In this document: positions 1 through 10,293 of the stretch, one piece after another
Numbering within the stretch: position 1 is the first letter of the stretch
Layout of the letters: each line of letters starts with the position of its first letter
Assembly (NCBI GenBank): GCA_043798715.1
Contig: JAZDOK010000100.1
Coordinates: 197,645 to 261,644 of the forward strand
Direction: 5' to 3'
DNA: 64,000 nt
Source of the DNA: a bacterium
GTDB taxonomy: Bacteria > Vulcanimicrobiota > JAZDOK01
Translations under genes and position numbers: made by a program
The notes under the pieces: model-generated
The model's database searches: none
The model's input: the letters and a program-made list of their open reading frames with translations, nothing else
What the model was told of the DNA's origin: nothing

Positions 1-714
1 GTCCAGGATCGCCCCGAACACGCCGCCGGCGCTCAAACCGCTGATGGTGTGCAACTGGCCGAGGAAGCCGAAGAGGACGATTGACTTGCTGCCGTTGTGC
101 AGGATCGCAACCGTCTGCAGGTAGGCCAGGTTCTGGAGGGTGACGTCGACCCATTCCAGGTTGCGGCCGAGGATCGTCTTCCCCCTCTCCGTCGCGTCGC
201 CGAAGGCGGCGGAGGCGGAACAGCTGCTCACGCGCAGGACGTCCGGTCCGAGCTCATAGACGAGGAGCTTGTTCCGGGAGAGCTTTCCGTTCCCCAGCGT
301 GTCGTCCGTATCGGAAAAGACCGACTGCATCCCCCGAATCTCGTCCTGGTACTCCGTCGGGATATTGGGGAGGATGGCTTGCGCTCGTTCTACAAGCTTC
401 TCGAAGGTGAGGTGCTCATCCCATATATGCAACTGGTCGAACATCGCCTTCAGCCCCGCATCGACCTGCGACTCGAAGCCGAGTACGCCGTTTTTGATCT
501 GCAGGGCGTATTGCCGCCCGATGTCGTAGTGGCCCGCGGCCTGCATGTTGATGTCGACCTTGTAATACAGGTCATTCACTCTATTCAGCGTCACGACTAC
601 AGGGCTTGGGGACGGGGACGGGCCGCTCTCATGGGACGTCGAGGAACTGCACCCCTGGAGCGCCGTGAAGGCCAGCAGGATGACTACGACAATGGCCATT
701 TTGAAATCTTTCAT
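1..714 (-). CDS. Peptidase C45 / Ntn-hydrolase family lipoprotein (acyl-CoA:6-APA acyltransferase-like); partial, runs off the window 5' edge
   Basis: I translated the reverse complement myself: MKDFKMAIVVVILLAFTALQGCSS... carries a lipoprotein signal, a candidate nucleophile in SSC|SASAAF and a GRNLEW motif resembling the C45 GQNWDF motif. There is a GGAGGA RBS 6 nt upstream of the ATG at 712-714. It lies antisense to track ORF 97..936. Confidence 0.55.
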   Translation of the reverse strand, partial: MKDFKMAIVVVILLAFTALQGCSSSTSHESGPSPSPSPVVVTLNRVNDLYYKVDINMQAAGHYDIGRQYALQIKNGVLGFESQVDAGLKAMFDQLHIWDEHLTFEKLVERAQAILPNIPTEYQDEIRGMQSVFSDTDDTLGNGKLSRNKLLVYELGPDVLRVSSCSASAAFGDATERGKTILGRNLEWVDVTLQNLAYLQTVAILHNGSKSIVLFGFLGQLHTISGLSAGGVFGAILD

Positions 715-728
715 GGGATCCTCCTTTT

Positions 729-750
729 AATGGGGACACAATACTATTTA
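729..750. repeat. REP-like sequence (left inverted copy)
   Basis: aatggggacacaatactattta; identical to the reverse complement of 1446-1467. Confidence 0.7.
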
Positions 751-1409
751 TTATTTAGCCTTGGCCTCCCTCGAGGAAGAAATCTCAAGATACGGCCGGT
801 GAGTTCCTCAGCTCTCTCAACGAAGTCATTATTTCCGCATATTCTACCGGTTTTTACCTTTTTTTGTAAACAATCCTTCATCTCTTTCTCAGTGTCCTTG
901 GTTAGAAATTCTCTCCAATCCATCTCCTCTAAATAGAGAGATTCCTTAACTAAGGGGTCTTTGTCTTTCAAGCCGACTCTCCAGGCAGCGCTTGACCATG
1001 TGTAATCCCAGGGTTCCTGCGCCAGTCCAGCCCGCACCGGATTGCGCTCAATGTATCGAACAGCAGCGTAAAGGTGTCTTTCATCAAGAGGACATGAGTA
1101 GAATCTTCCCTGAAATAAATATCCACGGACATCTTGGACGCTGTTGACATTAAATGTGTATCTGCGATGAGCCTCACCAATAGCCCTGGCCAGAGATTTT
1201 TCTTCGGAAGGGACGGCAATGAGATGGATATGGTTGCTCATAAGGCAATAAGCAAGGAATGTGACGCCATGGCGGGAGCCCTGGGATGAAAGCAAATGAA
1301 GATATTCAATACGATTTTGAGCGGAGAAAAAAACATCCTGCGATCTGACGCCGCGTTGTGTTACATGATGAGGATGACCCGGTATAACAATTCTTGCAAT
1401 TCTTGCCAT
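744..1409 (-). CDS. REP-associated tyrosine transposase (RAYT; IS200/IS605-like Y1 HUH transposase)
   Basis: 221 aa. It has a HUH motif (HIHLI) and a downstream Tyr-containing region (RYIERNP) typical of TnpA_REP / Y1 transposases, and it is flanked by inverted REPs. Confidence 0.8.
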   Translation of the reverse strand: MARIARIVIPGHPHHVTQRGVRSQDVFFSAQNRIEYLHLLSSQGSRHGVTFLAYCLMSNHIHLIAVPSEEKSLARAIGEAHRRYTFNVNSVQDVRGYLFQGRFYSCPLDERHLYAAVRYIERNPVRAGLAQEPWDYTWSSAAWRVGLKDKDPLVKESLYLEEMDWREFLTKDTEKEMKDCLQKKVKTGRICGNNDFVERAEELTGRILRFLPRGRPRLNNK

Positions 1410-1445
1410 AAGGATATTTTACCATTAATATAGAGAAGATGCAAT

Positions 1446-1467
1446 TAAATAGTATTGTGTCCCCATT
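1446..1467. repeat. REP-like sequence (right inverted copy)
   Basis: taaatagtattgtgtccccatt is the reverse complement of 729-750. Confidence 0.7.
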
Positions 1468-1475
1468 TTTCCCCA

Positions 1476-2954
1476 TTACATCCCCAATCCAGCTAAAAAG
1501 CTCTTGGCCACGGAGAAGGTCCAGGAGGTGAAGGCGGGGAGGAGGCCGAGGGCGGCGGCGGCCAGGGCGGAGACTATTATGACGACGGCGCAGGGGGCGG
1601 GGATGCGGATGGGTTCCTGGTTTTTCGGCTCCACCAGGTAGGCCTGGCGGAGGACGCCGAGGTAGTAATAGAGCGAGATGACGCTGGTCAGAATACCGAT
1701 TAAGGCCAGGAGGTAGAGTTTTTCCCCGCAGGCCGAGGCGAAGAGGTAGAACTTGCCGATGAAGCCCGAGAGAGGCGGAAGGCCCGCCGCGGAGAGAAGG
1801 GTAATCGCCAGGACGAAGGCCAGGGCCGGCGAGCGCCTTCCCAGCCCGGCGAAGTTTTCAATCCTGTCGGAACCGGTGGCCTCCTCTACTAAGAACACCA
1901 CGGCGAAGGCCCCCATCGCGGTGAGGGCATATATTACAATATAGAATAGCGCGGCCCCGAGCCCTTCGGCCGAACCTGCGGCCAGGGCGGTCAGAAGGTA
2001 GCCCATGTGGGCCACGCCCGAGTAGGCCAGCATCCTCTTGATGGAGGTCTGGGGCAGGGCGGCCAGGTTTCCCACCAGCATCGAGAGAAGCGAGAGCACC
2101 GCGAAAAGAAAGACCCACTCCGCCTTAAAAGGCGAGAGCGCCGTGAAGAAGAGACGCAGGAGAATGACAAGCCCCGCCGCCTTGGGCCCGGCGGCGATGA
2201 AGGCGGTGATGGGGGTGGGCGCGCCCTCGTAGACATCGGGGGCCCACATATGGAAGGGCGCTGCGATGATTTTAAAGCCGACCCCGGCCAGCAGAAATGC
2301 GATTCCCAGGAGCCAGACCGGTGAGAAATCGGCGCTGAAGGAAGGAGAAAGAAGAATCATGGAAAGGCGGGTGGAGCCGCTCAAGCCGTAGATCAGGCTC
2401 AGCCCGTAGAGGAAGAAGACCGAGGATAAAGCTCCCAGGATAAAATACTTAAGACCCGCCTCGCTGGAGCGGGACTCTTTCTTTTTAGAGGCTGCCAGCA
2501 CGTACATCGGGATGGACATGAGTTCGATCGAGAGAAAGAGCGTGACCAGCTCCCCGGCCGAGGCCGTGAGGAGCATCCCGCAGGCGATGAATAAAATTAG
2601 AATTAAGGGGACACAATACTTAATTCCTTGTGTTTTGCTAATTAAGTTTTGTGTCCCCTCAGTCATGCTGAGGAGAACGGCCAGGGCCGCAATCAGAAGG
2701 AAGGTGAGCTTGAAAAAGAGGGCCAGGTGGTCTAGGATGAAAAATCCCTTAAAGAGTGAGAGCTGGTCGTCCCAGAGAGTGGCCGCAGCCAGGCCTGCCA
2801 GGACGATCCCGAAGAGGGAAATATTGCCGAGCGCCTTTTTCCCTTTTACCCAGAAAGCATCCAAAAGAAGCACCAGGACGGCAGTCACCAGAACGATGAG
2901 TTCCGGGGAGAGAGGGCGCAGGGCCCTCCATATTTCAAGGTAATTGAAGGTCAA
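1476..2954 (-). CDS. nuoN: NADH-quinone oxidoreductase subunit N (antiporter-like), carrying an in-frame REP-like insertion
   Basis: 492 aa polytopic protein of the NuoN/ND2 family and the last gene of the nuo operon. Residues ~98-117 (EGTQNLISKTQGIKYCVPL) are encoded by the palindrome at 2604-2659. Confidence 0.85.
   Translation of the reverse strand: MTFNYLEIWRALRPLSPELIVLVTAVLVLLLDAFWVKGKKALGNISLFGIVLAGLAAATLWDDQLSLFKGFFILDHLALFFKLTFLLIAALAVLLSMTEGTQNLISKTQGIKYCVPLILILFIACGMLLTASAGELVTLFLSIELMSIPMYVLAASKKKESRSSEAGLKYFILGALSSVFFLYGLSLIYGLSGSTRLSMILLSPSFSADFSPVWLLGIAFLLAGVGFKIIAAPFHMWAPDVYEGAPTPITAFIAAGPKAAGLVILLRLFFTALSPFKAEWVFLFAVLSLLSMLVGNLAALPQTSIKRMLAYSGVAHMGYLLTALAAGSAEGLGAALFYIVIYALTAMGAFAVVFLVEEATGSDRIENFAGLGRRSPALAFVLAITLLSAAGLPPLSGFIGKFYLFASACGEKLYLLALIGILTSVISLYYYLGVLRQAYLVEPKNQEPIRIPAPCAVVIIVSALAAAALGLLPAFTSWTFSVAKSFLAGLGM
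2604..2659. repeat. REP-like imperfect palindrome inside the nuoN coding sequence
   Basis: The arm aattaaGGGGACACAAtACTTAATT, a 14-nt loop, and the arm AATTAAGTtTTGTGTCCCC match 18 of 19 positions. The shared GGGGACACAATACT core is also present in the RAYT-flanking REPs. Confidence 0.65.
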
Positions 2955-4468
2955 TGGAAACTACCCCCAAAAATCGTCAGGAATTGCATAACGGAGATCC
3001 TGGCCGTGTCTATGATGAATGATGGGTGGAGGCCGAAGAGGAGGATGGAAAGAAGGAGGAGCGCCAGGGGCCATTTTTCGATTCCGGCCAGATCCGATAG
3101 CGCCTCATATTCAGGTTTGAGAGGGCCGAAGAAGATTTTCTGGACGGCCCTGAGGATATAGATGGCGGCCAGAAGCAGGCTCAGGATGGAGAGGGCCGCC
3201 AGGATGGGAAAGCTCTCAAAAGCGCCCACAAAGACCAGAAATTCAGCCACGAAACCGCTCATCCCGGGAAGCCCCAGCGCCGCCAGTCCCCCCGCCGTCA
3301 TCAGGGCGGCCAGGAAGGGCAACCGGGTGGCCAGCCCCCCCAGGCTCTCAAGGTTCCGGGAGTGGGCTTTTTCATAGACCAATCCGGCTCCGCAGAAGAG
3401 GAGGGCGGTGATGACCCCGTGGGAGACCATCTGGAAAAGGGCGCCGCTGATGCCGGTCGGATTTAAGCAGGCCAGCCCCAGCAGGACGAAACCCATGTGG
3501 CTTATGCTCGAGTAGGCTATGAGATACTTGAGATCCTTCTGGGCCATGGAGCACAGCGCCCCGTAGAGAATGTTGACGACGGCCACCACCGCCAGGAACT
3601 TAAGCGCCCAGGCGGCCCCCTGTGGCAGGAGTCCCATGCCGACGCGCATGATCCCGTAGGCGCCCATCTTGAGGAGTAGTCCGGCCAGGAGCATGGAGAC
3701 GGCGGTGGGGGCGGCGGAGTGCCCGTCCGGAAGCCAGGTGTGGAACGGGAAGATCCCGGCCTCGATGCCGAAGCCGACGAAGAAGAGGAGGAAGAGAATC
3801 TTCTGCTGTAAGAGTGGCAGAGCCGCCCCCGCCTGCATGAGGGCCGCCAGATCAAAGGTGCGGGCGCCGGAAAGGACGTTTATAGCCAGGATTCCCAGGA
3901 GGATGAGCCCCCCTCCGAGCTGGAGGTAGAGCATGAGCTTCATGGCCGAATCTTCCTTCCGGACCGGATGAAGCGGGTCCTCCCTGTTGGAGCCCCAGAT
4001 GCCGATGAGGAAATACATGGGTACGGATGCCAGTTCGTAAAAAAGGAGGAAGAAGAAGAGGTCGAGGGAGAGGAAAAGGCCGAAGGAGCCCGCCAGCACC
4101 AGAAGGATCAGGACGAAATATTTTTTTTCATCCGTGCGGATATGGGAGGAGGCGAGGATGGCCGCCAAGGCCAGGATGCCCGAAAGAAGAATAAGCGGGG
4201 AATTTAAACCGTCCAATCCCAGGTGCCAGGAGATTCCCCAGGAGGGAAACCAGGGCAGGCGCTCTTCAAACCAGAAGGAGGCCGGGTTGGCTCCATTCAG
4301 GTACGGGTTGTAAAGCCAGAAGACGGCCGCCGAAAGCACAAAGGAAAAACTCGCGGCCAGAAGGGCGGTCAATTTAACGGCCCCGGCCCGGCCCTTCGGA
4401 AGAAGAAGCACGATGAGAGCGCCGCCCAGCGGAATGAGGATGAGAAGAAAGAGGAGCGGGATATTCAT
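2951..4468 (-). CDS. nuoM: NADH-quinone oxidoreductase subunit M
   Basis: 505 aa polytopic NuoM/ND4-family protein. It overlaps the nuoN start in an ATGA arrangement. Confidence 0.85.
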   Translation of the reverse strand: MNIPLLFLLILIPLGGALIVLLLPKGRAGAVKLTALLAASFSFVLSAAVFWLYNPYLNGANPASFWFEERLPWFPSWGISWHLGLDGLNSPLILLSGILALAAILASSHIRTDEKKYFVLILLVLAGSFGLFLSLDLFFFLLFYELASVPMYFLIGIWGSNREDPLHPVRKEDSAMKLMLYLQLGGGLILLGILAINVLSGARTFDLAALMQAGAALPLLQQKILFLLFFVGFGIEAGIFPFHTWLPDGHSAAPTAVSMLLAGLLLKMGAYGIMRVGMGLLPQGAAWALKFLAVVAVVNILYGALCSMAQKDLKYLIAYSSISHMGFVLLGLACLNPTGISGALFQMVSHGVITALLFCGAGLVYEKAHSRNLESLGGLATRLPFLAALMTAGGLAALGLPGMSGFVAEFLVFVGAFESFPILAALSILSLLLAAIYILRAVQKIFFGPLKPEYEALSDLAGIEKWPLALLLLSILLFGLHPSFIIDTARISVMQFLTIFGGSFH

Positions 4469-7267: not shown

Positions 7268-9166
7268 TCAGACGCGCTCCTTCAGCGTTTTTGGAGGCTG
7301 GGTTTTGAGACACAGCCGGTCTTTGTCGTAGAGCATTTTCTCCTTTTGGTATTCGGCCAGTTCATACCGATCGCTCATGAAGAGGGCCCCCGTCGGGCAC
7401 TCCTCGGCGCAGAGGCCGCAGAACATGCAGGTTCGGATGTCGAGGTCATACTCCGAGACGATCTCGCGCCCGTCCTGGCTGATCTCGGTTTTAACCTTGA
7501 TTACCCGGTCGGGACAGACCTCCTCGCAGATGCCGCAGCCCACGCAGAGCCCCGCCTGGCAGGTGAGACAGCTTCTGGCCTCCGCCAGCATCTCATTCTC
7601 CCCGGGCTCCTCTTCCACCTCCCCGAAGTGGCCCCGGCGCTCATCAGGGGGAAGCAGGGAGCCCGTGCGGTGGATGCGCGAAGGATCCGCGAAGCGGGCC
7701 ATGAGGCCCGCCTCCTCGCGGAGGTAGCTGAAGCTTTCAATGGGCTCCTTCGTTTTTCGGAGGAAGCGATGGATGGCTTGGGCCGCCTTCTTGCCCTGGG
7801 CGATGGCCGAAATCACCGTGCCGGCGCCGCTGGCGGCGTCGCCCCCGGCAAAAACACCGGGGAGGGCGGTCGAGGCGTCCTCATCGTTGAAAATAATTTT
7901 GCTGTTGCCGTCTTTTAAGGCATCCGGAATCCCCTCGCCGTCCAGCTTCTGTCCCACGGCCAGGATGACGCTGTCGGCTTCCACCGTAAATTCCGAGCCG
8001 GGCAGCGGCTCGGGGCGGCGCCTTCCGGAGGCGTCCGGGAGGCCGAGGGCCATGCGGAGACACTCAATCTTTTCCAGGCGCCCCTGGCCGAGGAAGCGGA
8101 CGGGGGTGGCCTGGAACAGGAAACGAACCCCCTCTTCCTCCGCGCAGGCGACCTCCTCGGGATGGGCCGGCATCTCGGCGCGCGAGCGGCGGTAGATGAG
8201 CGTCACCTGCGAGCCCAGGCGCAGGGCGCTTCGGGCCGCGTCGAGGGCCGAGTTCCCCCCGCCGACCACGGATACATTTTTTCCGATGGAGGCTGGCTTT
8301 CCCATCGCCAGGTCCCGGAGAAAATCAATGGCGGAAAGAACTCCCGGAAGGGAGGCGCCCTCGGCTTTCATCCCCGACTCCTTCCAGAGGCCGGTCGCAA
8401 GGTAGACGGCACTGAAGCCCTCGTCCTTCAGGCTCTCCAGCGAGAAATCCCGCCCGAGGGCCTTTCCGGTCAAAATCTCGACACCCAGGTTTTTGAGGTC
8501 CTCTATCTCGCCGGCCAGAACCTCCCGGGGGAGGCGGTAGGCGGGGATGCCGTAGCGCATCATCCCGCCGGCCTCGGGGAGACGCTCAAAGACCGTCGTC
8601 TTGTAGCCCAGCCGGGCCAGGTCCTGGGCGGCGGCCAGGCCCGAGGGTCCCCCTCCGACCACGGCCACGCGCTCGGGGTGCCTGATGGGAGGCGGCTCAA
8701 TCTTTTCGGTGTTGGCGCGGCCCCAATCGGCCAGGAAGCGCTTTATGAGGCGGATGGGCACCGCCTGGTCCTTCGACCGTCCCCTCTTGCACAGGTGCTC
8801 GCAGGGTGCCGGACAGACCCGCCCCAGGGAGGCCGGGAAGGGGTAGTGGCCTTTGAGCAGGCGGTAGGCCTCGCGATATTTTCCATCGGCGGCCAGGGTC
8901 ACGTAGCCCCGCACGTCGGTTAAGGCCGGGCAGGTCTCCATGCAGGAGGCCGCCGGAATATTATTAAGGAACAGGCTTTTTTCGCTGGCGGTCTTTGCGT
9001 TGAAGAAATCCTTCACCATTGGCAGGCCGCGGAAGCGCGGGGCCAGCGTATCTTTTTCCCAAGGATACTGAAGGGTTATGGAGGGACGGAAGAAGTTGCG
9101 GAGCGTCACCCCGAGGCCCGCCAGGAGATACCAGATGCCCTTTGAAAAGCGAATGATCGTTTTCAT
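7268..9166 (-). CDS. nuoI: NuoI homologue with an inserted GltD-like NAD(P)H:FAD/FeS oxidoreductase module (chimeric NuoI)
   Basis: - N-terminus: MKTIIRFSKGIWYLLAGLGVTLRNFFRPSITLQYPWEK...RFRG has the NuoI N-terminal signature.
- Insert: a ~450-aa glutamate-synthase-small-subunit-like region with Cys-rich FeS motifs (ASCMETCP, RVCPAPCEHLC), an FAD-binding GGGPSGL motif and a second nucleotide-binding site (VVGGGNSALD).
- C-terminus: the canonical NuoI 2x[4Fe-4S] motifs (CLTCQAGLCVGCGICEEVCP and CMFCGLCAEECP).
- Start assignment: I assign the start to the ATG at 9166, which gives an ATGA overlap with the nuoH stop. The track ORF extends upstream to 9298. Confidence 0.8.
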   Translation of the reverse strand: MKTIIRFSKGIWYLLAGLGVTLRNFFRPSITLQYPWEKDTLAPRFRGLPMVKDFFNAKTASEKSLFLNNIPAASCMETCPALTDVRGYVTLAADGKYREAYRLLKGHYPFPASLGRVCPAPCEHLCKRGRSKDQAVPIRLIKRFLADWGRANTEKIEPPPIRHPERVAVVGGGPSGLAAAQDLARLGYKTTVFERLPEAGGMMRYGIPAYRLPREVLAGEIEDLKNLGVEILTGKALGRDFSLESLKDEGFSAVYLATGLWKESGMKAEGASLPGVLSAIDFLRDLAMGKPASIGKNVSVVGGGNSALDAARSALRLGSQVTLIYRRSRAEMPAHPEEVACAEEEGVRFLFQATPVRFLGQGRLEKIECLRMALGLPDASGRRRPEPLPGSEFTVEADSVILAVGQKLDGEGIPDALKDGNSKIIFNDEDASTALPGVFAGGDAASGAGTVISAIAQGKKAAQAIHRFLRKTKEPIESFSYLREEAGLMARFADPSRIHRTGSLLPPDERRGHFGEVEEEPGENEMLAEARSCLTCQAGLCVGCGICEEVCPDRVIKVKTEISQDGREIVSEYDLDIRTCMFCGLCAEECPTGALFMSDRYELAEYQKEKMLYDKDRLCLKTQPPKTLKERV

Positions 9167-10293
9167 GCAGGTGGCAACCTCCAGAGAACCTGTGAGCAGG
9201 CGATGATCAGGTTGAGAAAGGCAAACGGCAGGAGTACCTTCCAGCTGAATGACATGAGCTGATCGGGCCTGAGGCGCGGGAAGGTCCAGCGGATCCACAT
9301 GAAAAGCAGGATGAGAAGATAGACCTTGAGGAGGAAGACCACGATCCCGAGCGCCTGGAGGGCGTAGGGGAAGTGAAGGAATGAAACGATCTTATCGTCC
9401 AGTCCGAAGGGAAGCGTCCAGCCTCCCATAAAGAGCGTCACCGCGATGGATGAGGCGATGAACATGTTGGTGAATTCCGCCAGGAAAAACATGGCGAACT
9501 TCATCCCGCTGTACTCGGTGTTGAAGCCCTGCACCAGCTCCTGTTCCGCCTCCGGGATGTCGAAGGGCGGGCGGTTTATCTCGGCGGTGGAAGCGATGAG
9601 ATAAACCAGAAAACCGATGAACTGCGGGATTAGGAACCAACCCAGGCTGATCTGGGCCTCGACTATGCCGGCCATGCTGAGGGTGCCGGCCGCCAGGACC
9701 GGCCCCAGGAAGGCGAAGAAGAGAGGGACCTCGTAGCTTATTATCTGCGCCGCCGAACGCATGGCGCCCAGGAGGGAATACTTGTTGTTTGAAGCGTAGC
9801 CCCCCATCACGATGGCGATCACCGAGAAGGTGCCCACCGCCATGAGGTAGAGAACGCCGATGTTGAGGTCTTTCACGATGAGGCCCGGGCCGAAGGGCAG
9901 GACCACGAAGGCCATCATGCAGGCCGTGAATACGACGACCGGGGCGATTATGAAAACCCAGCGGTCGGCTTTGGTGGGAATGATGTCCTCCTTGAGGAGG
10001 AGCTTCAAGGTGTCGGCGGTGGTCTGAAGGAGCCCGCCGGTCCATATACAAATGCGTGCCAGGAAGCGCGGCCCGGTGAGCATGGGCCCCAGCCGCCGCT
10101 GGATGCGGCCGCAGACCTTGCGCTCAAGCCAGATGAGGAAGAGCGCGGTGAGGAGGATGAAGACCAGCACTATTATGGCCGAAAGGAGCATGTAGGCGAA
10201 ATCAAGTAGAGGCTGCCACGCCTGCCATCCCCGCCCGGCCAGCCAGGCGGTCAGGGGGCGGTAGAAAATGATATCTTTTAAATACTGCTCCAT
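9163..10293 (-). CDS. nuoH: NADH-quinone oxidoreductase subunit H
   Basis: 376 aa polytopic NuoH/ND1-family protein (LWERKV-like N-terminus, conserved quinone-site region). Confidence 0.85.
   Translation of the reverse strand: MEQYLKDIIFYRPLTAWLAGRGWQAWQPLLDFAYMLLSAIIVLVFILLTALFLIWLERKVCGRIQRRLGPMLTGPRFLARICIWTGGLLQTTADTLKLLLKEDIIPTKADRWVFIIAPVVVFTACMMAFVVLPFGPGLIVKDLNIGVLYLMAVGTFSVIAIVMGGYASNNKYSLLGAMRSAAQIISYEVPLFFAFLGPVLAAGTLSMAGIVEAQISLGWFLIPQFIGFLVYLIASTAEINRPPFDIPEAEQELVQGFNTEYSGMKFAMFFLAEFTNMFIASSIAVTLFMGGWTLPFGLDDKIVSFLHFPYALQALGIVVFLLKVYLLILLFMWIRWTFPRLRPDQLMSFSWKVLLPFAFLNLIIACSQVLWRLPPA

Follow-up and report, generated by a model that had tools for sequence, protein, structure and literature searches.

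The window analysed here, a 64,000-nt stretch of a bacterial contig (JAZDOK010000100.1, positions 197,645 to 261,644 of the forward strand), carries a hairpin-forming DNA element inside nuoN, the gene for an antiporter-like subunit of respiratory complex I, and the explanation we consider probable is that an old, inherited and tolerated doublet of a miniature Y1 element has replaced the codons of the loop between the third and fourth transmembrane helices (TM3 and TM4) of NuoN. According to this explanation the palindrome would be a miniature form of a Y1 (HUH) tyrosine-transposase element, no longer autonomous, in which two terminal repeats of about 19 nt face each other over a 14-nt spacer with their GGGG/CCCC ends pointing outward and the transposase gene absent. 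Repeat-derived DNA would have lodged in the TM3-TM4 loop codons of an ancestor whose descendants form a small uncultured clade, the native loop codons would have been lost, leaving a loop length near the family norm, and nuoN would afterwards have been inherited vertically under purifying selection. Mobilisation would have been carried out by a Y1 transposase through a single-stranded hairpin, and the hairpin peptide would be close to neutral. The case would in this way trace a route from a bacterial miniature mobile element into the coding sequence of a core bioenergetic membrane protein, and its main interest lies in the length-neutral takeover of a loop, the loss of a conserved glutamate, the record of single and doubled units among the lineages and the cross-phylum family of repeats to which they belong.

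The nuoN gene (1476-2954, minus strand) is an intact open reading frame (ORF) of 492 aa, and the inverted repeat of the 56-nt hairpin within it consists of two arms of 20 nt each, at 2606-2625 and 2640-2659, which are 95% complementary and separated by 14 nt. The full extended palindrome (2601-2664, minus strand) forms a 25-bp stem around the same spacer and corresponds approximately to residues T98-I118 of NuoN. Repeat unit 1 (2640-2658, minus strand), which reads GGGGACACAAAACTTAATT in the direction of the gene, is translated as GTQNLI, the spacer, in gene orientation AGCAAAACACAAGG (2626-2639, minus strand), is translated within SKTQG, and repeat unit 2, which is GGGGACACAATACTTAATT on the plus strand (2607-2625), reads IKYCVP on the minus strand. 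As single-stranded DNA the hairpin folds at -16.8 kcal/mol (z = -6.0) and as sense-strand RNA at -27.8 kcal/mol (z = -5.7), and in both cases none of 200 shuffles folds as well. The nuoN ORF passes in frame through the hairpin with the peptide ...SMTEGTQNLISKTQGIKYCVPLILILF..., or in a longer view ...LLSMTEGTQNLISKTQGIKYCVPLILILF..., and the hairpin-type TM3-TM4 loop sequence is GTQNLISKTQGIKYCVP. A preliminary description of this DNA had reported precisely such a hairpin, translated with these residues inside an intact, conserved nuoN, and on this point it was correct; that the palindrome is translated through follows from the fact that two of its three frames are stop-free in each orientation. 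Searching Rfam over window positions 600-3000 with E-values up to 10 gave chance microRNA-like matches on the hairpin and nothing else.

The arms of the hairpin share a 14-nt core, GGGGACACAATACT, with the repeats flanking a nearby transposase gene, as the preliminary description had also pointed out. When the window is scanned for the 14-nt core GGGGACACAAWACT allowing at most two mismatches, four copies are found against 0.49 expected, two of them being the nuoN arms and two the flanking repeats. The gene in question (744-1409, minus strand) encodes a Y1 (HUH) transposase of 221 aa, IS200-like and resembling the RAYTs, the tyrosine transposases associated with repetitive extragenic palindromic (REP) sequences. 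It matches Pfam Y1_Tnp (PF01797) at 33.5 bits against a cut-off of 23, and the HUH motif HIH, in SNHIHLI, and the catalytic tyrosine, in VRYIERNP, can be read from its translation. Its score of 63.1 bits against the NCBIfam RAYT model REP_Tyr_transpos (NF047646) lies under the cut-off of 80, and the enzyme is RAYT-like and not a certified RAYT equivalog. Among plasmids tblastn finds relatives of it at 35% identity or less and nothing closer. On the 3' side of the gene a terminal inverted repeat (TIR), AATGGGGACACAATACTATTTA (729-750, plus strand), overlaps the stop codon, and about 40 nt upstream of the start codon there is a perfect inverted copy of it (1446-1467, minus strand), the two forming a 22-nt pair of the kind that flanks the transposase gene in a RAYT system or REPtron. 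The notion that the nuoN arms and these flanks are the same repeat holds for the core but not for the 3' extension that follows it, which is ATTTA in the flanks and TAATT in the nuoN arms, and since the two diverge after the core the nuoN doublet is not a fresh copy of its neighbour's ends. The unit GGGGACACAATACT is furthermore not self-complementary, is without a GTAG or CGTC tag and occurs four times in 64 kb, and for these reasons it is not a REP.

The unit belongs to a family that extends far beyond this genome. One genome per GTDB species was scanned for the exact 18-mer GGGGACACAATACTWWWT, which returned at least 120 stretches from hosts including Omnitrophota, Elusimicrobia, Planctomycetota, Alpha-, Gamma- and Deltaproteobacteria, Clostridia and cultured Sphingomonas. 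Among the matches listed the conserved stretch is wider than the search pattern, roughly AATTCC-GGGGACACAATACT-TAATT, and the nuoN arms agree with the cross-phylum consensus GGGGACACAATACTTAATT at 18 of 19 positions in unit 1 and at all 19 in unit 2. Inverted doublets account for 45 of the 157 copies among the matches listed, with 14-93 nt between the cores, the corresponding distance in nuoN being 24 nt. Homologues of the window transposase are encoded in 17 of the 120 stretches among the matches listed, the full-length ones being 41-55% identical to it, and at the loci of the latter the repeat is found about 40 nt upstream of the ATG and an inverted copy often just past the stop, which is the layout seen at window 729-1467. 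This position of the repeat beside homologous transposases in other phyla identifies the unit as the terminal repeat that belongs to a Y1 transposase family of wide distribution. Judged by its sequence, the nuoN doublet would be such a transposase element without its gene, in an architecture like that of a miniature inverted-repeat transposable element (MITE) or of a REPIN, a hairpin-forming doublet of REPs. A full-text literature search with the core sequence matched unrelated primers and nothing else.

It should also be mentioned that GGGGACACAATACTTAATT, mostly preceded by AATTCC or AATTAA, is near-invariant across many phyla, the associated Y1 transposases being 41-55% identical. This constancy, unlike the species-specific nature of classical REPs, suggests either that the DNA recognised is strongly constrained or that horizontal transfer is frequent, and a 19-nt transposase-associated repeat conserved over many phyla is a lead in its own right. 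The assertion that repeats of this kind are normally intergenic is in agreement with the family at large, as no convincing conserved gene was found around the 181 repeat copies from other genomes among the matches listed, and the 21 long open frames that do run over those copies are mostly GC-rich artefacts. A peptide search for translated doublets in a set of 5.8 billion proteins likewise gave two candidates, none of them scoring, with a motif too short for good sensitivity. Copies of the GGGGACACAATACTTAATT family inside genes thus appear to be rare.

The gene that hosts the doublet has all the hallmarks of a functional nuoN. Its product scores 417 bits against TIGR01770 (cut-off 333) and 250 bits against Pfam Proton_antipo_M (PF00361), and it keeps every residue that is invariant across an alignment of 50 NuoN sequences, including the conserved charged residues E144, K228, K258 and K401 of TM5, TM7, TM8 and TM12. 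An AlphaFold2 model from 50 input sequences has a mean predicted local distance difference test (pLDDT) score of 90.4 and a predicted TM-score (pTM) of 0.92, and matches solved NdhB/NuoN chains with a TM-score of 0.87. The ratio of non-synonymous to synonymous substitution rates (dN/dS) among the window and its relatives is 0.11-0.20, at synonymous distances (dS) of up to 0.76, and by this substitution pattern nuoN is evidently intact and under ongoing purifying selection.

Relatives of this NuoN were sought among 5.8 billion clustered proteins, of which three are close and all others no more than 51% identical. P0002 (93% identical, 488 aa) is encoded on the JGI contig L002, the identical (100%) sequence being found as L125 under a second JGI identifier, P0003 (82% identical, 485 aa) occurs in two Logan runs, L003 and L004, and P0004 (75% identical, 484 aa) stems from a 79-kb JGI contig, L001. 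In the DNA of P0002 and P0003 the hairpin is found at the same codons as in the window with homologous junctions on both sides, and the 14-nt spacer is identical to that of the window in P0003 and has one substitution in P0002; counted by contig, the same hairpin at the same codons is present in five others from JGI and Logan assemblies of these two lineages. P0004 has one unit only, TTAATTAAGGGGACACCATACTTAATT, at the same left junction, and this is followed by codons for ARGEVLS, in which the native Gly-Glu motif of the NuoN family is present. The dS is 0.60 between the window and P0003 and 0.74 between the window and P0004. Since the hairpin is common to lineages at a dS of about 0.6, the insertion is old and fixed and not recent, and its recurrence in three lineages that were assembled independently excludes a misassembly, as far as this can be judged from assemblies. 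Aligning orthologues, as the preliminary description had proposed, confines the hairpin residues to one small clade, the native loop being found in every homologue of the 50-sequence alignment that is no more than 51% identical, and this specificity indicates that the hairpin DNA is foreign to NuoN.

The element was at first thought to add some 19 aa to the protein, but the lengths of the surrounding segment speak for a replacement. The segment K82-G126 measures 38 aa in 38 of the 50 aligned homologues, and it is 44 aa long in the window, 40 in P0002, 37 in P0003 and 38 in P0004. The net change relative to the family mode is therefore +6 aa in the window and +2 and -1 aa in the two relatives, and with lengths so near the mode of 38 the hairpin must have replaced the native loop and was not added to it. 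What disappeared includes a glutamate that lies where TM4 begins, within the motif G-E-[FY]-[YF]; it is present in 47 of the 50 sequences and is a tyrosine in the three hairpin bearers (Y113 of the window NuoN, alignment column 130), and alignments place the same glutamate in the solved subunits of Thermosynechococcus, Paracoccus and Mycobacterium. Foreign DNA thus took over the loop, native codons were trimmed with the length kept, and a 94%-conserved residue was lost without visible cost.

In the model, TM3 spans residues 76-96 and TM4 residues 115-131, the stretch that joins them containing a short helix (99-109), and the pLDDT falls only over residues 101-120, to 54 at 101-110 and 74 at 111-120. 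A β-hairpin is predicted at residues 65-74, between TM2 and TM3, and as the β-hairpin elements of complex I and Mrp are on the periplasmic side, with helix HL on the cytoplasmic side (PMC7419157), the next loop, which is the one encoded by the DNA hairpin, would be cytoplasmic. The encoded peptide is by this model a low-confidence surface segment that NuoN seems to tolerate. Alignments to metazoan ND2 chains furthermore start at query residues 116-121, that is at TM4, which fits the idea that the TM3-TM4 loop region is dispensable in some lineages and agrees with the loop being marked as permissive by the element. The earlier suggestion of a domesticated loop insertion comes nearer to the evidence, which speaks for tolerance in the loop and not for a gained function.

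Two sets of observations nevertheless weigh against a doublet that was simply inherited and tolerated, the first relating to conservation of the hairpin at the nucleotide level and the second to the order of events and the source of the element. Between the window and P0003 the hairpin is identical at 50 of 51 nt, compared with 82% in the rest of nuoN, third codon positions match at 16 of 16 sites compared with 70% elsewhere, and no synonymous difference is found among the three hairpins. The pair just outside GGGG/CCCC is moreover A-U in the window and P0002 and U-A in P0003, and two positions that changed in the window pair as G-U on the sense strand, so that one compensatory and two G-U-compatible changes are seen. 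This conservation and paired change would be compatible with constraint on the hairpin or with a more recent origin, and could mean that the hairpin is selected as a nucleic-acid element, for instance as a site that the Y1 transposase binds or cleaves or as an mRNA stem-loop that acts on translation or stability at the 3' end of the nuo transcript, the peptide being a by-product; the strength of the RNA stem (-27.8 kcal/mol) and the occurrence of in-frame indels in the flanks, with the element itself intact, are likewise in favour of this. A binomial test of the conservation gives P = 5e-4, but in a sliding-window control 49 of 1305 windows of 51 nt in nuoN (3.8%) are equally conserved, and the conservation is for that reason not counted as significant. 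Covariation, counted over three sequences only, is no better than in shuffles (161 of 500 as good), some lineages have mismatches at two stem pairs, a single unit suffices in P0004, and Rfam gave no match. The hints of nucleotide-level constraint are weak, and we consider selection on the nucleic acid unlikely. Continued upkeep of the hairpin inside an indispensable gene, whether to serve the cross-phylum GGGGACACAATACTTAATT transposase system as a protected master copy or recognition site or to tune expression of the last nuo gene at the mRNA level, is similarly doubtful; were it true, the near-identity and the base-pair-preserving changes would reflect function or a repeated transposase-driven rewriting of the site.

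With regard to the order of events, the tree by distance is ((window, P0002), (P0003, P0004)), P0003 and P0004 being 88% identical at the nucleotide level, and yet these sisters differ in allele, the former having the doublet and the latter the single unit followed by the native-like RGEVLS. Over the 30-39 nt that follow the first unit the two show no relationship (0/10, then 9/11 matches), and since P0003 resembles P0004 in its flanks as far as the edge of the element, an ordinary long recombination tract offers no explanation. By these alleles at least one abrupt element-sized replacement took place after the first insertion. This is what parallel insertions into a hot spot might look like, if an ancestral single unit drew the doublet separately in the (window, P0002) lineage and in P0003, in which case the hairpin would be younger than the lineages that carry it, and both the near-identity of the hairpin across lineages and the nested truncated copies that are stacked beside full units in many genomes, suggesting repeated events at existing copies, are in agreement with such a course. 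The junctions and the 14-nt spacer are however alike in all three doublet bearers, and parallel insertion consequently needs an identical donor and an identical replacement of about 30 native nt, twice. Nor is there a candidate donor: a scan of JGI metagenome contigs for the doublet with its spacer matched solely L125, which is identical to L002 and thus nuoN itself, and there are no dispersed copies of the doublet in the 64-kb window or in those contigs. The latter result cuts both ways, as it leaves inheritance of a mobile doublet without a source population, just as the mismatch in repeat subtype separates the nuoN arms from the transposase next door. On balance we find parallel insertion distinctly improbable and retain the replacement of the loop codons by one old, inherited doublet.

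That the transposase next door inserted the hairpin into this genome recently, as the preliminary description had envisaged, or that it is an artefact of assembly is highly improbable, for even if the transposase unit is 1.1 kb away and may with its perfect 22-nt repeats be young or active, the five other contigs of two other lineages have this hairpin at the same codons, its spacer and junctions are common to lineages at a dS of about 0.6, the 5.85-kb contig L002 has neither a transposase homologue nor another repeat copy, and the repeat subtypes of the nuoN arms and the transposase flanks differ.

An intragenic copy had been regarded as unusual, but in-frame palindromic repeats have been described before. 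PMC3733652 reports REPs inside genes of several species, over half of them dimers or grouped repeats encoding 20-30 aa, and the genes affected include an antiporter-like subunit 'C' and an NADH:ubiquinone oxidoreductase subunit of O. terrae. Rickettsia palindromic elements (RPEs) likewise form part of in-frame coding sequence (Ogata et al. 2000 as cited in Di Nocera, De Gregorio and Rocco 2013, PMC3733652). The likeness is that short palindromic mobile repeats, with dimers of about 20-30 aa, are translated in frame in host genes that stay functional, and the nuoN element resembles the RPE type in being in frame, in a gene with a dN/dS of 0.11-0.20 and in a TM3-TM4 loop of low pLDDT. It is set apart from these elements as a member of another repeat family, since its unit is an GGGGACAC-type terminal repeat and is not GTAG- or CGTC-tagged, and its host is no Rickettsia. 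It further differs in replacing the native loop almost length-neutrally with removal of a conserved glutamate, and in being traceable over four lineages with the single-unit form included. The phenomenon as such is known, related subunits included, and the nuoN case is a further example of it and no new principle.

Among systems defined by their transposase, a close match in layout is offered by the TIRtron elements with their TIR-associated tyrosine transposases (TIRYTs), in which RAYT-like genes are flanked by TIRs, a subset of these shares a GGGGWSAS motif, and copies of the TIR occur as singles, dimers and clusters (PMC3733652). The window has a RAYT-like Y1 gene between non-palindromic TIRs, GGGGACAC fits GGGGWSAS as quoted there, and the GGGGACACAATACTTAATT repeats likewise occur as singles, dimers and clusters; the assignment to this group is by the TIR pair and the quoted motif only, and a difference is that intragenic TIR copies are not described in the available part of that text. 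REPIN-RAYT systems (Bertels and Rainey 2011, PMC3116915; Bertels et al. 2017, PMC5581495) are similar in having a hairpin-forming inverted doublet and a Y1 transposase flanked by the same repeat. Classical REP units are however palindromic, species-specific and present in tens to hundreds of extragenic copies (PMC3116915, PMC5581495), whereas the nuoN unit is not palindromic and is conserved across phyla, and the window transposase falls under the NCBIfam RAYT cut-off. The nuoN element is accordingly a hairpin doublet like a REPIN, but no replicating population of near-identical doublets is seen with it, there being one doublet in 64 kb and the spacer-bearing doublet being found solely in nuoN in the JGI metagenome contigs. 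With bacterial MITEs it has in common that two terminal inverted repeats of an autonomous element enclose a short non-coding core, but the parent enzyme is of the HUH/Y1 type and a target-site duplication is not visible. HUH/Y1 transposases normally use subterminal hairpins and not TIRs.

Many full units of the family are preceded by what may be called stutter arrays, which are nested 3'-truncated copies (GGGGA, GGGGACAC, GGGGACACAATAC and so on) with the same 6-nt flank before each. Among the matches listed, the flank plus GGGG is repeated within 120 nt upstream of 22 of 157 units compared with downstream of 7 of 157, and examples are found at L024:1-120, L028:4180-4340, L094:2660-3680, L026:2700-2800 and L107:7620-7660. 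By their arrangement these arrays appear to have arisen from abortive or iterative events that recurred at the element's outer end. In the window three TGGGGA motifs are found in a run at 1460-1486 (minus strand), namely in the repeat end, in the intergenic stretch and in the last nuoN codons (GLGM*), and the transposase unit hence borders a native nuoN end that resembles the transposase's own repeat end. GGGGAG is also the sequence of the codons for the native Gly-Glu in the P0004 loop of NuoN, and it may be speculated that GGGGA-like sequence is a target preference of the transposase element.

The region downstream of nuoN was compared between the window (1-1476), L002:4180-5850, L001:11456-13789 and L003:1752-2033. 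Synteny ends exactly at the nuoN stop and the sequence beyond is different in all four lineages; L002, for example, is 94% identical to the window over nuoL-M-N, and the homology stops exactly at the nuoN stop codon. With all four differing there is no empty site for comparison, and the limits of the transposase insertion are not definable in this way.

The nuo operon of the clade itself has the order A-B-C-D-H, a 632-aa protein in the NuoI position and then J-K-L-M-N, as read from L001, and nuoEFG were not seen in 13.8 kb of that contig. The 632-aa protein (L001:3778-5676) has Fer4 and Pyr_redox_2 (GltD-like) domains, and the syntenic ORF in the window (7268-9298, minus strand) encodes 676 aa. 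Judging from this gene content, the electron-input module of complex I in this clade may be unusual.

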